IMG/VR virus record: IMGVR_UViG_3300037961_003440
Span: 30,365-94,364 of that record
Length of the DNA stretch: 64,000 bases
Origin: a virus
Direction: 5' to 3' (one strand)
Part shown: piece after piece, positions 53,609 through 60,662 of the stretch
Numbering within the stretch: the first letter of the stretch is position 1
Layout of the letters: every line of letters begins with the position of its first letter
Made by a program: the position numbers and the translations under genes
The notes under the pieces: generated by a model
Told to the model about the DNA's origin: nothing
The model's input: the letters and a program-made list of their open reading frames with translations, nothing else
Database searches by the model: none

Positions 53609-53830
53609 TTAATCGTCATCACTAATACAAGAACCGCCAACAATTGCTTGAGTTAGTACGACTTCATCAACCGCATTAAAATCAATGTTAGCAATATCTT
53701 CTCTTGAAACCAATTCACCATCAACATATGCCCAATGTGTAGGGTGGTCAATTATTTGGTCAAGTGCTTCAGTTGCACTTAGAGTTAATTCTGTATGTCC
53801 TGTTTCATTCAATATTGTTATCTTTACCAT
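53609..53830 (-). CDS. Ubiquitin-like (SAMP/ThiS beta-grasp) protein precursor
   Basis: MVKITIL...WAYVDGELV...DEVVLTQAIVGG followed by a 7-aa extension SCISDDD. Confidence 0.8.
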   Translation of the reverse strand: MVKITILNETGHTELTLSATEALDQIIDHPTHWAYVDGELVSREDIANIDFNAVDEVVLTQAIVGGSCISDDD

Positions 53831-55970: not shown

Positions 55971-56297
55971 ATAAAATAAAACTATATTAAAATGATTAGT
56001 TATAGTTTATATATTGTTCTGGTTATTGTTAGATAAATAAGACAATTTATCCAAAAAACTTCTGTGCGAATTGCCCAAACCGACACCACCTATGACCCCC
56101 TACCCCTTATAAGGCAAGCCGACCCCCTCCGACCTGCCTATATATCACCAATTAGATTGTTTTGTCAGAAGTTTAGAACCATATGGTAATAATAACTAAT
56201 AGTGTAAATTTGTGGAACGCATTATTACCCCAAAGGGCGACATTTTTTGTGAGAAAATGCCGAAAAACTCCCTCAAATTGAGGCTTAATCCTCTTCA

Positions 56298-56777
56298 TCA
56301 AGCCTCATTTGAATTAACCCCATAAGTGCCGGATAAATTTCCGGTTTCTTTGAAATTCCTGCGACCATCACGCTCATCGGCTTCAAGTTTTGCTTTCAAA
56401 TATGATTCAAGTGTATGTTCATATCTAACACCATCTTCAACAAATGTCGGTTTGAGTTTTGAATTCTCAAAAAATATTTGGTGATTAACTTGATTATCTT
56501 TTGCCTGTTTTGAGTTAGCCTTTAGCACATCTTTGTCAAGTCGGACACTTCGCCAACCTTCAAATTCATTATCAGCAAATTCAAGTTTTAGACTCTTGAC
56601 GATTTTTTCACGGTTTCTAAGTGATTCACCTCGCTTCATTTGATATTCGGCAAGGTCAATTTTGTCAAGAATAACCTCATCTTCACTATTCTCATTTTCA
56701 ACAATCCACGCCTTAAGAGGGGCGAGAAATTTGTTATATATCTCATCGTTTTGGTATTTCGTTTTCTTTTCGGTCAT
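56298..56777 (-). CDS. Hypothetical protein, distant paralogue of 59622..60248
   Basis: Likely start MTEKK; shared DE..N, D.I.L....RG, E..D and terminal F..TG...G patterns. Confidence 0.6.
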   Translation of the reverse strand: MTEKKTKYQNDEIYNKFLAPLKAWIVENENSEDEVILDKIDLAEYQMKRGESLRNREKIVKSLKLEFADNEFEGWRSVRLDKDVLKANSKQAKDNQVNHQIFFENSKLKPTFVEDGVRYEHTLESYLKAKLEADERDGRRNFKETGNLSGTYGVNSNEA

Positions 56778-56810
56778 ATTAATTACCACTAAATAGGACT
56801 TCTTTAACAT

Positions 56811-56882
56811 CATAAGGTTTTCACAAAGTTACAACCATATGGTAAGGCCACTTTGTAGGCACGAACCTTAAGGTCATATGGT
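56811..56882. promoter_or_regulatory. Bidirectional element AAGGT-CAAAG-ACCATATGGT-CTTTG-ACCTT between divergent genes
   Basis: Palindrome at 56834-56843 with mirrored arms; TATA-like CCTTAWG on each side. Confidence 0.6.
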
Positions 56883-56893
56883 ATTCTAATACC

Positions 56894-57103
56894 ATGTTTT
56901 CATGGAGAAAAATATCAAGAAAAGAGCGTAAAGAAGAAACACAAAAGAATTTTACCCTTAAATTAAAACAGGATAGATATAAGAATTGGATTTGTGAATC
57001 TGCAAGGGTTCAAGGTAATACAATTGAAGAGGTCAAAGAAAGAATGGATTTATTATTGGCTGCAATTGTTGAAAAATTAGATGAAGCAAACGGAGATGAA
57101 TAA
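56894..57103 (+). CDS. Small hypothetical protein (first of a + strand cluster)
   Basis: Leaderless-type spacing from the TATA-like box. Confidence 0.5.
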   Translation: MFSWRKISRKERKEETQKNFTLKLKQDRYKNWICESARVQGNTIEEVKERMDLLLAAIVEKLDEANGDE

Positions 57104-57341
57104 AATGGATAACATACCAAAAGAAGTAGAAAAAACAATAGAGCAAATAACACGAGAACAGAAAAAAGTATTTGAGGATTATTACGATACACAAATTAGA
57201 AAATGGGTTTGGTATTGTTGTAATAAGGGCTGTGCAACAATTAATGTAAAAAATCCTTTAGATAGTGTAGTTTTTGTTGATGCTTGGAGATATTTAGAAA
57301 CAGAATGTCTAAAAAATAGCAAGGTGAATAATAATGAGTAA
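57081..57341 (+). CDS. Hypothetical protein
   Basis: Operon ORF; start probably at 57105. Confidence 0.5.
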   Translation: MKQTEMNKMDNIPKEVEKTIEQITREQKKVFEDYYDTQIRKWVWYCCNKGCATINVKNPLDSVVFVDAWRYLETECLKNSKVNNNE

Positions 57342-57467
57342 ATTATTGAAAGAAGCACAAAGTAAAACTCTTGAATTGTTAAAAATTGAAGAGGATTTGG
57401 CATATCATAGATGGTTAAGAGCAAAACAAATGGTTGAATTTAAGAAATTATTGGAGAGTGAGGAAGA

Positions 57468-57725
57468 ATGAAATACAAATATGATATGACTAAAGAAGTT
57501 TTGATTGCTTCATGGCTAAAAGATTTTGATGAATTACCACATACTAAAAGTGTAGTTTATAGTTTCTTTAGTATTATTTCCGAAACTGATGATGAAGAAA
57601 TAATTAATTCTTATTATACTTCTATTGTTGGATTATTAAAAGACTGTAAAGGCTATCCTCTAAAAAGAGGTTGGAATTTTAAGAAAAGTAATATTGAATT
57701 GCTAAAAGAATTAGGGTGGTATTGA
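57468..57725 (+). CDS. Hypothetical protein
   Basis: GAGG RBS. Confidence 0.55.
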   Translation: MKYKYDMTKEVLIASWLKDFDELPHTKSVVYSFFSIISETDDEEIINSYYTSIVGLLKDCKGYPLKRGWNFKKSNIELLKELGWY

Positions 57726-57913
57726 TGAAATACAAAAATAATCAATTAATTGCAATTATTCAAGAGATATGTGCAATAATTTATTTTCAACAATCATTAA
57801 AACATCAAGATAAATGGTTGAATGACAGAATTAAAGATGGGCTTTGGGATTTAGAATTGTGTGAAGATGAAGAATATGAAAATGGATTTAAAAAAGAAGG
57901 TGAGGAAGAATGA
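57716..57913 (+). CDS. Hypothetical protein
   Basis: Coupled ORF. Confidence 0.5.
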   Translation: MVLMKYKNNQLIAIIQEICAIIYFQQSLKHQDKWLNDRIKDGLWDLELCEDEEYENGFKKEGEEE

Positions 57914-58185
57914 TAAATGAAATAATGAATGAATTAGTAGAATTAAGATTTAAAGTAATAGGTGCTAAAGATAGCAATACAGGTAAAATACCGGATTATA
58001 GAAATTATGCTGTAACATATTTTTTGAATATGAATCATGCTTATGTTGATTATGGTATTGAAGGTTTGAGAACACAAATTTTGTATGTTATTTCAAATCT
58101 TGAAGATTGGAATTGTGTTGAAGGTATGAAAGTTAAAAATCAATTAAAATTGATTACTATTAAATTAAAGGAGATGTTAAAATAG
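57910..58185 (+). CDS. Hypothetical protein
   Basis: ATGA-coupled; GLRTQILYVISNLEDW. Confidence 0.6.
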   Translation: MINEIMNELVELRFKVIGAKDSNTGKIPDYRNYAVTYFLNMNHAYVDYGIEGLRTQILYVISNLEDWNCVEGMKVKNQLKLITIKLKEMLK

Positions 58186-58458
58186 GTAAATTTCAAAGAA
58201 GGCATTATGAAATATTAGCCGCTACAATTGCTTTATTTAATGAAAATGAATTATATGAAGTAGATGATATAATCAATAAAGTTACTGATATGCTAATAGC
58301 GGATAATCACAGGTTCAAATATAATCAATTTGTTGAAAAAATTGAATTTATAAGAAATAGATTTGTTCCGAGATACGATTAGATTTATCATACCTCCGTG
58401 TGCAGTTTTTGGGTTCTGCATTATTAAAAACCCAATTTTTTTGAGTTTTAAATTATTT

Positions 58459-58508
58459 CAAGGTACTGCAAAGCGTACCATATGGATGCCGCTTTTGCAT
58501 AATCCTTA
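58459..58508. promoter_or_regulatory. Second copy of the AAGGT-CAAAG-ACCATATGG element
   Basis: caaggtactgcaaagcgtaccatatggatgccgcttttgcataatcctta upstream of 58554. Confidence 0.55.
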
Positions 58509-58553
58509 GATAATAATCGAAACCCTATTTATCACCTAATAGGAGGTAGTAGT

Positions 58554-59030
58554 ATGAGTAATACAGAAGAAGAAATGCAAGACGAAAACAAGAAAGCAAC
58601 CAAAGAGGATGTCATTGAATTGGCAGAATCAATGGGGATAAATAGAGGCACTTGTTCATGGGATAATCCGGTGAACAAATTTGTAATAATGTTGAATACA
58701 TTATTCATGAATACCTTAGCAAGTGAAAGAGTGAACCAAGATTGTTTGATGATTTTAGTCGGCCAACCAATAGGTCAATTAAAAGCCATCAAAGAATCAT
58801 ATGATGCTTTCAAAGCGGCTGAACAAAAGCAACGAGATTATTACAAGGCTGAAAGAACCAAGAAAGATGAATGGGAAGAAAAATATAATTCTGTTAAATG
58901 GAAAAACAGACATATTCAATCTTCTAATAGATTCGCACGAGTCATCGCTCAGATGGCTTTAGATGATTCAAGAAGATTGAGTTATGCAATATCGGAGGCT
59001 AATGATATGTTTAGTTTCGACGATGAGTGA
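58554..59030 (+). CDS. Hypothetical protein ending MFSFDDE
   Basis: Strong GGAGGT RBS. Confidence 0.65.
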   Translation: MSNTEEEMQDENKKATKEDVIELAESMGINRGTCSWDNPVNKFVIMLNTLFMNTLASERVNQDCLMILVGQPIGQLKAIKESYDAFKAAEQKQRDYYKAERTKKDEWEEKYNSVKWKNRHIQSSNRFARVIAQMALDDSRRLSYAISEANDMFSFDDE

Positions 59031-59061
59031 TTAATTTCACTACTAAACTACTGCAACAAGT

Positions 59062-59106
59062 CCGGTTCAGGGGGTAATTTATTGGTTCAATTACTCCTTG
59101 AATCGG
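59062..59106 (+). ncRNA. 18-bp RNA hairpin
   Basis: CCGGTTCAGGGGGTAATT/AATTACTCCTTGAATCGG; all three mismatches are G-U on the + strand. Confidence 0.55.
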
Positions 59107-59202
59107 CACATCATCGGCTTTGTTTCATTATACAAAAGTGTCATTTCACAAACCATATGGTTGTCCACGATAGTAAAATGGACACCGCAGGAGGGTAATT
59201 TA

Positions 59203-59223
59203 ATGTTTGATTGTGATGACTGA
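59203..59223 (+). CDS. Candidate micropeptide MFDCDD
   Basis: GGAGGGT ends 6 nt before the ATG. Confidence 0.35.
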   Translation: MFDCDD

Positions 59224-59297
59224 TTATTATCATTACCAAACATATTACCATATGGTTCATGCGTTAGCATATTATGAACCGCAGGAGGGTGAACAGA

Positions 59298-59321
59298 ATG
59301 TTCTTTGACGATGACGAGTGA
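59298..59321 (+). CDS. Candidate micropeptide MFFDDDE
   Basis: GGAGGGT ends 7 nt before the ATG. Confidence 0.35.
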   Translation: MFFDDDE

Positions 59322-59621
59322 TTAAGTTAAGAACATTATTATCTGTTACCATATGGTAAGCACTTTGTAGCGCACCTTACAAAAATAAAATTAATAAAAA
59401 AATAAATTAAAAAAAAAGGTGGGAAGAAAATATATTACTATTTTTTTATAAGATTTGATTAAGAAAAAAATCTACACAAATCTTATGAAGCCTGACAAAC
59501 GAACAACTGAACACAAGTTTAAGTTTAAAACTTCCCATGATGGATTTTTACTAAGAATCCTAACTTAGACATACAAGATTATGACCTCTAATTATTTACT
59601 TGAAGAAATTAATCTTCTTCC

Positions 59622-60248
59622 TCAAGCAGAATCATCTGTGGATTCCTCCGTAGAAACTTCTTCTGCTATTGGTGGTTTAATGTTTAGACCTTCTTCAAGA
59701 TTTAATTTACCATCCCAACGACCTGTTGTAAAGTATTTGGTAAATCTTTGTTTTACAGCAAAACCTCTTGCTTTAGCCATTTCTAAACCATCAGGATATG
59801 GTGAACCACCCATTTCCTTATTTCTATCTGAAATAACATTTGTTTGTTGAATAACAAGATTGTTGTTCCAAAAATCAACGGTTGCATCAATTGTCATTTG
59901 TTCTAATGTAGACAAACTTGCTTGAACAAATGCAGGCAAATTAGATTCTGCACCCTTTTGTATAGGCCAATTTGTTGCTAATGCACCATCTGATTTTTCA
60001 ACAGTTAAATCTCTTCCTTCAATTAGAATTTGATTCCATAGATTCTTCCGCTTTGCAGAATTTCTATTACCTCTTCTAATATTCATTCGTATCAATTCAA
60101 CAGCATCAATTATATCATCATTAGAATTCAAGTAATCTTGATTACCTTCATGGTCTAAAAATTCTTCAACCTTTGTTATTCTGCTATTCCATTTTTCATC
60201 TGTCATTGACAAATCTTTTTCTTTCTTTTCTGTTTCTTTCTTAGGCAT
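59622..60248 (-). CDS. Hypothetical protein, distant paralogue of 56298..56777
   Basis: See paralogue; same upstream element. Confidence 0.65.
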   Translation of the reverse strand: MPKKETEKKEKDLSMTDEKWNSRITKVEEFLDHEGNQDYLNSNDDIIDAVELIRMNIRRGNRNSAKRKNLWNQILIEGRDLTVEKSDGALATNWPIQKGAESNLPAFVQASLSTLEQMTIDATVDFWNNNLVIQQTNVISDRNKEMGGSPYPDGLEMAKARGFAVKQRFTKYFTTGRWDGKLNLEEGLNIKPPIAEEVSTEESTDDSA

Positions 60249-60321
60249 ATTTTTTCACTTCCTTATTTTTCTTTTCTTACTTCCCGTTTTTGGGAAGTGC
60301 TATATCAATCCCACAATAAAT

Positions 60322-60356
60322 CATAAGGTATTGCTGCAAAGCGCAAACCATATGGT
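60322..60356 (-). promoter_or_regulatory. ACCATATGGT-CTTTG-ACCTTATG element upstream of 59622..60248
   Basis: cataaggtattgctgcaaagcgcaaaccatatggt, collinear with 56811-56843. Confidence 0.6.
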
Positions 60357-60662
60357 TCTATTCTTAGGTTCATTCGTCATCATCTCTTATGGCGGAGGGT
60401 TCTTTTTATTCTCTATTCATTCTTCAATCCATATGGTTCTACTTTGGAGGTTCTTGATTTTTTATTTAATTAAATCAAATCTTTTTTTCTGTGATTGCGA
60501 AAACTGCATATTCTTGTCGAAACACCTTTCAAACAGACTATGACAGTAAAATATACATCATTCTGTATAGTAAAAAAGCAGATACAGCAAAACCGATACA
60601 TTTTACCAAATACATACTGTTATAACCCTCTACATACCCTGATATAACATGAGGATTACCTA

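Follow-up and report, generated by a model that had tools for sequence, protein, structure and literature searches.

Comparison with related viral contigs shows that two short tandem units, at 59152-59256 and 59247-59357 of the window, belong to a conserved family of cassettes of ~90-120 bp in magrovirus-like marine viruses. Each unit runs from the palindrome ACCATATGGT through a first hairpin (hairpin A), the Shine-Dalgarno (SD) sequence GCAGGAGGGT and a micro-ORF to a 3' arm, which completes a second hairpin (hairpin B). The units are probably translated, and the best explanation of the evidence may be that the short acidic peptide is itself the functional product, a reading to which a probability of about 0.4 is given.

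The window is the whole stretch of 64,000 nucleotides that was analysed, bases 30365-94364 of a 94,364-bp IMG/VR record, with a GC content of about 30%. Its minus strand encodes a family-B DNA polymerase, an RFC-like clamp loader, an ATP-dependent ligase and a ribonucleotide reductase; the closest cultured relatives of the polymerase are haloarchaeal tailed viruses, at about 25% identity. Magroviruses, which are viruses of Marine Group II archaea, have the same profile of size, origin and replication set and are among the most abundant archaeal viruses in the surface ocean (PMC5434244). From its size, marine origin and replication gene set, the virus fits a magrovirus-like marine virus, and its host is probably archaeal. 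Magroviruses are uncultured. Five marine metatranscriptome runs hold 7-18% of the sampled words.

The array sits in the gap between two convergent genes, a 158-aa ORF (58554-59030, + strand) and a 208-aa ORF (59622-60248, - strand), and is adjoined by an AT-rich non-coding tract at 59380-59620. Ten neighbouring small ORFs searched against Pfam and PHROGs gave no usable annotation, with one weak match to an unannotated PHROG, and a search of a protein atlas returned sub-threshold leads only. AlphaFold2 modelled the 158-aa protein with low confidence (pLDDT 68, pTM 0.40), and the model was uninformative.

The two units and their family

Exact copies of the palindrome at 59152, 59247 and 59348 are spaced 95 and 101 bp apart, and the repeat ACCGCAGGAGGGT is found at 59184 and 59278 (two matches against 0.19 expected). 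These positions confirm the tandem units of 95 and 101 bp given in the preliminary description. The same description stated that the units share only their junctions, which proved too narrow, since the SD, the type of ORF and the TTACC 3' end are also common to both. The ATGs at 59203 and 59298 sit 6 and 7 nt past GGAGGGT and open the peptides MFDCDD and MFFDDDE, each followed by a stop codon. The 215-nt stretch folds at -59.8 kcal/mol (z = -4.2), and none of 200 dinucleotide shuffles was as good. In the constrained MFE fold, both start codons are base-paired to sequence past their own stop codon, the ACC and GGU of the palindrome close the flanking hairpins, and AUAU stays unpaired. The stretch folds as had been described, withstanding the shuffle check proposed for it, and the sequestration of an ATG 6-7 nt past GGAGGGT within hairpin B is borne out by sequence and fold. 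The parts are as follows.

59152..59161, unstranded: palindrome ACCATATGGT, copy 1, left boundary of unit 1 (exact match)
59159..59186, + strand: hairpin A of unit 1, GGT-TGTCCA ... TGGACA-CC (constrained MFE fold)
59184..59196, + strand: ACCGCAGGAGGGT, end of hairpin A and Shine-Dalgarno of unit 1 (exact repeat)
59203..59223, + strand: micro-ORF 1, MFDCDD and stop (read from sequence)
59194..59249, + strand: hairpin B of unit 1, formed between the end of the SD with spacer and AUG on one side and the region past the stop codon up to TTACC on the other (fold)
59247..59256, unstranded: palindrome ACCATATGGT, copy 2, shared boundary (exact match)
59254..59280, + strand: hairpin A of unit 2, GGTTCAT-GCGTTAGCATATT-ATGAACC (fold)
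59278..59290, + strand: ACCGCAGGAGGGT, Shine-Dalgarno of unit 2 (exact repeat)
59298..59321, + strand: micro-ORF 2, MFFDDDE and stop (read from sequence)
59288..59350, + strand: hairpin B of unit 2 (fold and family covariation)
59348..59357, unstranded: palindrome ACCATATGGT, copy 3, right boundary (exact match)
59355..59376, + strand: generic arm past the last palindrome, GGT-AAGC-ACTTTGTA-GCGC-ACC, then TTACAAAAA (CTTTG arm)
59060..59109, + strand: strong terminator-like hairpin between the 158-aa gene and the array (fold of 58990-59400, G.U pairs on the + strand)

When viral contigs were searched for two palindromes 75-105 bp apart, tandem palindromes were found in 38 of them, against a rough estimate of 1-2 by chance. 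About twenty of these contigs carry units with the same order of parts, and 27 units were extracted. Across the family, the stem of hairpin A is closed by GGT...ACC and varies in between (TTCAT/ATGAA, AG/CT, CAT/ATG, TGTCCA/TGGACA), while the loop GCG-NN-AGCATATT is kept in most members. The SD is GCAGGAGG(G)T or a G-rich variant, and it is followed by an NTG start, an ORF of 6-11 codons, the back-pairing 3' arm, TTACC and the next palindrome.

A covariance model (R1) built from 18 units recovered, at E<0.02, 25 units that come from about 17 different related viral contigs; the homologues looked for in relatives by a covariance-model check are present. In five viral genomes of ~90-96 kb, R1 matched 2-3 units per genome, in the control region only, and in 443 kb of loci carrying the pattern by chance it matched no units. 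A scan of viral contigs for CCATATGGT-N16-34-GCAGGAGG added 50 loci, all of them chance matches with no R1 match. The tandem-palindrome pattern was also sought in 596 Gb of prokaryote genomes, where the 33 scattered matches were at about chance level by a rough estimate. The single true unit among them (L100) lies on a contig binned as an Altibacter MAG, which is probably a mis-binned viral contig.

RNA structure and coding signal

Covariation between the two units of the window had been described from their hairpins; it is real and extends over the family. In the R1-fitted alignment, 85.2% of pair cells are paired, compared with 35-49% in slid controls, which retain the relatedness of the sequences yet fall well below the observed pairing. 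Compensatory, double-sided changes occur in 13 of 19 pairs, and none of 500 shuffles matches the observed values; since the alignment is structure-fitted and the sequences are related, these figures lean toward structure and the shuffles overstate independence. The helices of hairpin A are 98.7-100% paired family-wide, with compensatory changes in all four pairs of its main helix (helix 2), and in the outer helix of hairpin B (helix 4) seven of eight pairs covary. In 20 of the 27 units, the sequence past the stop codon pairs with the start codon.

The single conserved fold that is supported is that of hairpins A and B. Pairing from one palindrome site to another is possible but invariant and hence uninformative, and equally uninformative was RNAalifold on a MAFFT alignment, which paired only the invariant palindromic ends. 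A search of Rfam gave no match at the gathering score, the hits at E<5 reaching only 13-17 bits against cut-offs of 37-65, and ARAGORN found no tRNA or tmRNA. A C/D-box sRNA was considered and rejected, the UGAUGA and CUGA motifs stemming from GAU codons and the stop and lying adjacent to each other. A CRISPR-like array was discarded as well: the identical blocks measure only 10-13 bp and the "spacers" are homologous, structured and coding.

The preliminary description noted G-U pairs of hairpin B on the + strand. Within the window the antisense strand folds equally well (z = -5.7), and therefore the strand assignment rests on family-wide asymmetry: the micro-ORF strand is the more stable one in 20 of 27 units (mean difference -2.3 kcal/mol, Wilcoxon p = 0.0017), G.U pairs number 84 of 779 on the + strand and 39 of 709 on the - strand, and one pair of hairpin B is a sense-strand G.U in 14 of 25 units. 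Taken together, these asymmetries favour a structure formed by the sense-strand RNA, at least in the case of hairpin B, and with a structured sense-strand RNA the transcript must include the SD.

The micro-ORFs encode peptides of the form M-[F/Y]-x(0-2)-[D/E/C]3-5 from ATG, GTG or TTG starts. Across the family they read MFFDDDE, MFDDDE, MFDDCE, MFDCDE, MYCDDE, MFCDDD, MFEDDE, MFNDEDE, MFDDDDE, MFYDDDE, MLYDDE, MFDEED and MYDDED, plus a few longer acidic ones. An NTG start, a strong SD upstream of it, the frame and an in-frame stop are kept in 27 of 27 units. Codons for Asp/Glu and for Phe/Tyr vary synonymously; the other, non-GAN triplets encode Phe/Tyr/Cys, Asn and a few others, and TGY triplets always fall in frame as Cys, recurring at positions 3-5. 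The units homologous to the first one of the window encode MFDDDE (L008) and MFDCDE (L012), while units of L008, L012, L013 and L032 encode MFFDDDE itself, from GTG starts and with codons that differ synonymously. Across the family, the aromatic and acidic character of the peptides persists although the codons differ. Every Asp and Glu codon has the form GAN, and the sequence by itself therefore cannot tell acidic coding from an RNA motif (GAN)n.

The 94-kb genome contains three SD-led ORFs composed of a start, at most 4 codons, at least 3 acidic codons and a stop, compared with 0.03 in shuffles. All three lie within 630 bp, and MFDCDD is a fourth. An ORF starting from the ATG inside the palindrome was tried and rejected, its frames and lengths not being conserved.

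Palindrome, recombination and ends of neighbouring genes

The palindrome had been presented as the junction of the units, which understates its distribution: it is a region-wide motif, found also at 56178, 56834 and 60347 and as variants at 58477 and 60428. All eight genome copies of CCATATGG lie inside the window at 56179-60429, a control region of 4.3 kb, where the palindrome also adjoins ordinary small genes.

56178..60437, unstranded: control region with every palindrome copy, at 56178, 56834, 58477 (variant), 59152, 59247, 59348, 60347 and 60428 (variant)

Related loci carry 5-16 palindrome copies per ~10 kb. On 112 of their 362 half-sites the palindrome is flanked by a CTTTG arm and then ACC(T/C)TA(T)A(T). 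This generic arm consists of GGT, 4-8 nt, CTTTG, 4-9 nt and ACC(T/C)TATAT, is often a short hairpin, and often precedes a GGTGA-type SD and a start codon by 25-35 nt. Hairpin A is a second type of arm, which in L037 and L023 precedes other sequences. Palindrome sites are located 50-80 nt upstream of gene starts, and the site at 56834 lies between divergent genes with an arm on each side. The association between an arm and a gene start on the same side is weak (25% vs. 11%, odds ratio 2.6, p = 0.019). From its position only, we infer a promoter role for the palindrome. Plausible core elements for a transcription start site are the palindrome itself, which is TATA-like, the TTATAT past the arm and GCATATTAT in the loop of hairpin A. 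Each of these candidates sits ~26 nt from some landmark. A literature search for the palindrome returned only noise from NdeI primers.

Comparison of the loci shows gain, loss and movement of cassettes through recombination at palindromes. In L041/L042, a single "empty" site stands downstream of the 158-aa homologue, and the sequences to its left and right can be aligned with those surrounding the two units of the window; the right flank of copy 3 aligns with the right flank of this single site and with those of L012 and L008. In the same two loci, one unit immediately precedes the 208-aa gene, and the 158-aa cassette has the opposite orientation to that in the window. The arrays consist of units c, b and a in L008, b and a in the window, and c and a in L012. 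Recombination at a perfect palindrome is possible in both orientations, and this would account for the inversions as well as the changes in copy number.

A similar arrangement is known from the PeSL cassettes of T4-type phages (PMC2839356, PMC4122927). There too, a short composite motif with dyad symmetry recurs between small genes of plastic regions, and insertions, deletions and replacements between related genomes end at the motif; here an inversion is found as well. PeSL consists of a sigma-70 promoter and a terminator, whereas the palindrome here is perfect, 10 bp long and flanked by covarying stems, and is a putative promoter. The haloarchaeal virus HGTV-1 is reported to have a TATA-box and inverted-repeat motif before ORFs in a similar layout (PMC3950731). 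The conserved cargo of a 6-8-codon ORF is unmentioned in both descriptions to the extent that they were available. By analogy, the element may be regarded as PeSL-like regulatory cassettes carrying minigenes.

The acidic motif also occurs at the ends of both genes that flank the array.

58994..59030, + strand: unit-like 3' end of the 158-aa ORF, with the tail MFSFDDE and stop (GGAGG, 8 nt, ATG TTT AGT TTC GAC GAT GAG TGA)
59609..59635, - strand: micro-ORF of a second type, MILLEEED and stop (GGAGG 9 nt upstream), out of frame over the stop of the 208-aa gene

The 158-aa protein ends in SEANDMFSFDDE, and its internal ATG is preceded by GGAGG 8 nt earlier. Over 31 nt, the end of the gene is 74% identical to micro-ORF 2. 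All seven homologue clusters of the protein keep an acidic end, and residues M152, F153 and F155 do not vary among them. In addition, R1 matches the gene end in L094 (28.4 bits) over the last ~100 nt, including a relic of hairpin A. Two CheckV-complete genomes have 2-3 units without a 158-aa homologue; therefore, the units are not copies of the end of that gene, and the 158-aa gene would more likely have absorbed a unit.

At the 208-aa gene, the overlapping micro-ORF in the alternative frame is conserved in six genomes. Counterparts of MILLEEED are MIREEED (L041), MIREDED (L008), MRGFEEED and MRFEEED (L003) and MNLLIEDED (L012). The alternative frame is conserved while the end of the main frame varies, which suggests that the second small ORF is itself under selection. 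A frameshift extension of the 208-aa protein was rejected, the alternative frame being open for 0-77 codons only.

Candidate functions of the units

Three readings had been offered at the outset. That of a micropeptide cassette or gated translation gives the best fit, since the SD, NTG start, frame, stop and composition are conserved, while the small-RNA array and the ribosome sponge found no direct support. In the peptide reading, each cassette would be expressed from or beside a palindrome-associated promoter, and the ribosome would load only once hairpin B opens. Translation would then produce, as a free peptide, the acidic C-terminal tail that the neighbouring early proteins bear, in frame in the 158-aa family and as an overlapping micro-ORF in the 208-aa gene. 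The free tail peptide could serve, for instance, as a competitor or ligand, tunable by dosage, for any partner that binds the tails, and its dose would rise with tandem copies. Against this reading, the sequestered SD and AUG argue against a high output. To our knowledge, a function is rarely known for free peptides of this size (6-8 residues) that are made by direct translation, and they would be short-lived.

What counts could instead be the act of translating rather than the peptide, as in a translation-sensing RNA switch of the leader-peptide or MgtL-like kind, which is the main rival though rather unlikely. Entry of the ribosome, or its stalling or fall-off on the D/E run, would open or fail to open hairpin B, and the altered pairing of the 3' arm and palindrome would affect how stable the RNA is, whether it terminates or how the next cassette is expressed. 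Hairpin B does couple access to the SD and AUG to the sequence running into the next palindrome, and micro-ORFs lie at the ends of transcription units, beside terminator-like hairpins and T-runs. The MgtL leader senses Mg2+ through ribosome destabilisation by an acidic run. Consecutive acidic residues near the N-terminus are the known trigger of this destabilisation (PMC9718836; bioRxiv 10.1101/2021.02.02.429294). Acidic leader-peptide switches have, like the units, a short ORF with an early D/E run and its own ribosome-binding site within RNA structure. Unlike them, the units are in tandem, have no regulated gene downstream in the window and carry a motif that doubles as a protein C-terminus. 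The leader-type layout, with a unit upstream of a co-oriented gene, is seen with the single unit directly before the 208-aa gene in L041/L042 and is not seen in the window, L008 or L012, whose arrays precede non-coding AT-rich DNA and not a same-strand gene. No conserved alternative pairing was found, and selection on the peptide is indicated by its aromatic residue at position 2, its recurrent Cys in frame and the in-frame occurrence of the motif as a protein tail. It also counts against a switch that we know of no demonstration of ribosome destabilisation in archaea. If the element were not translated at all, it could be a small-RNA array cut at AUAU or, acting at the DNA level, a set of protein-binding palindromes and G-rich boxes beside an AT-rich, origin-like region, with the ORF incidental; this is improbable. 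The AUAU left unpaired between hairpins, the equally good folding of the antisense strand in the window, the long AT-rich non-coding tract that the array abuts at 59380-59620 and the chance that (GAN)n is an RNA motif would all agree with it. Early genes of T7 have RNase III processing hairpins between them, and similarly stem-loops with single-stranded linkers punctuate an early transcription unit there; unlike those, the hairpins here enclose a translatable ORF and its SD. The preservation of NTG, SD, frame and stop in every one of the 27 units argues against an untranslated element, as do the confinement of non-GAN triplets to Phe/Tyr/Cys/Asn codons, the occurrence of the motif at the end of a translated protein and the lack of an Rfam match or tRNA-like element in the searches described above. 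The conserved G.U pair and the sense-strand asymmetry oppose a purely DNA-level reading.

Bar minigenes, ORFs of two codons, are known because they are toxic to hosts with defective Pth. The minigene format of SD, start, 2-8 sense codons and stop is found in the units, and an SD-led ORF of a few codons with a stop, and phage origin, are the points of likeness to lambda bar and synthetic minigenes (PMC2490762) and to the minigene regulator of the axe-txe operon (PMC8708949). A bar-like sink, in which repeated translation of the minigenes would let acidic peptidyl-tRNAs drop off and tie up tRNA-Asp/Glu or ribosomes and so dampen translation in the host, is nevertheless very unlikely. An SD, a start, 6-8 codons and a stop do fit the minigene format of 3-8 codons, which inhibits protein synthesis because peptidyl-tRNA accumulates (PMC2490762), tandem copies would add dosage, and N-terminal acidic runs favour translation abortion (PMC9718836). 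However, the virus's own D/E-rich early proteins would suffer equally, hairpin B masks the SD and AUG, and the in-frame and overlapping versions at gene ends are left unexplained. In contrast to bar minigenes, the units make up a family of related sequences in which the type of peptide is conserved, with RNA gating and a tandem arrangement, in a host that is probably archaeal. The known toxicity of minigenes depends on limiting peptidyl-tRNA hydrolase, which also speaks against a sink. The least probable reading, already disfavoured, is that the units are neutral debris of recombination, functionless leftovers of gene starts and ends from cassette exchange at palindromes. The number and position of units do vary between close relatives with breakpoints at palindromes, and the end of the 158-aa gene resembles a unit. 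Yet units are kept, with compensatory changes and peptide type, where the shared proteins are only about 45% identical (L003), and the two CheckV-complete genomes without the 158-aa gene still hold 2-3 units.

More broadly, it is possible, although doubtful, that SD-led micro-ORFs of the form M-hydrophobic-(D/E/C)4-stop make up a dedicated regulatory device, consisting either of trans-acting peptides, which as free tails would compete with tail-bearing early proteins for a shared partner from host or virus, or of an abortive-translation sensor of ribosome or Mg2+ state. If true, this would be a virus-encoded control element of a kind undescribed for archaeal viruses. In the portion of the magrovirus literature accessible to a term search, promoters, palindromes, repeats, Shine-Dalgarno sequences and such a family are unmentioned, and the acidic micro-ORF system has a fair chance of being new in kind. 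The element offers a sequence-defined handle on the magrovirus control region, with its boundary palindrome, its structured RNA and its tiny, apparently selected ORFs. If the peptides or their translation were functional, the micro-ORFs would be among the shortest conserved virus-encoded genes, and a rare case of a micro-ORF that is free, protein-fused and gene-end-overlapping. The three forms of the proposed device are the free, hairpin-gated tandem cassettes, the in-frame C-terminal tails and the out-of-frame overlaps at gene ends.

Inversion breakpoints and segments near the palindromes or the array

The cassette of the 158-aa gene (58554-59030, plus strand) is inverted relative to the 208-aa gene (59622-60248, minus strand) when the window is compared with the contigs L041 and L042, and the break points of this inversion fall at sites of ACCATATGGT, the 10-bp palindrome that bounds the units. 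Three segments close to the palindromes or to the array were also observed:

56100-56190: G-rich segment TTGGTGATATATAGGCAGGTCGGAGGGGGTCGGC, which comes after the palindrome at 56178, on its minus-facing side
59380-59620: long non-coding AT-rich tract separating the array from the 208-aa gene
60347-60437: segment of about 80 bp with ACCATATGGT on one side (60347) and, on the other, the variant TCCATATGGT (60428)

The last of these contains TTCATTCGTCATCATCTCTTATGGCGGAGGGTTC, which is about 91% conserved in four of the compared loci (L010, L017, L041 and L042). This segment, which resembles a unit in degenerate or composite form, carries a GGCGGAGGGT box on the plus strand and GATGATGACGAATGA (DDDE*) on the minus strand. 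The G-rich segment, for which a similar one is present in locus L008, is possibly structured, and no ORF of at least 100 aa adjoins it. In the AT-rich tract, A-runs are followed by GGTGGG and then by the block ACTGAACA...TTAAGTTTAAA, which is also kept in L041 and L042; the tract may serve the minus-strand gene as a terminator zone, or else represent a small RNA or an origin-like region.

Units and modules on other contigs

A full-scoring unit (92.6 bits) was found at positions 4737-4832 of L100, a 43-kb contig deposited within an 'Altibacter sp.' MAG. Most likely the contig is viral and was binned together with a bacterium; evidence on the host should not be drawn from its placement. At L037:12395-12576, a hairpin-A-type module (CATGCGTCAGCATATATGACC) lies downstream of a palindrome. 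The ORF behind it encodes a hydrophobic peptide of 22 residues (MIGFLEGSIFWIVFIYLINYFY*) in place of the acidic one and, therefore, the 5' module serves other small cargos too.

Acidic protein ends elsewhere in the window

The 73-aa ubiquitin-like ORF at 53609-53830 (minus strand) ends in ...IVGG-SCISDDD*, as verified by translation. The cap beyond its di-Gly is an acidic heptapeptide with Cys, matching the flavour of the micro-ORF peptides (MFDCDD* and MFFDDDE*). Several small early ORFs at 56894-58185 also have acidic C-termini (...GDE*, ...NNE*, ...SEEE*, ...GEEE*), because the gene that follows overlaps them and its purine-rich SD falls within their last codons. This overlap is an ordinary source of acidic tails, separate from the micro-ORF type.
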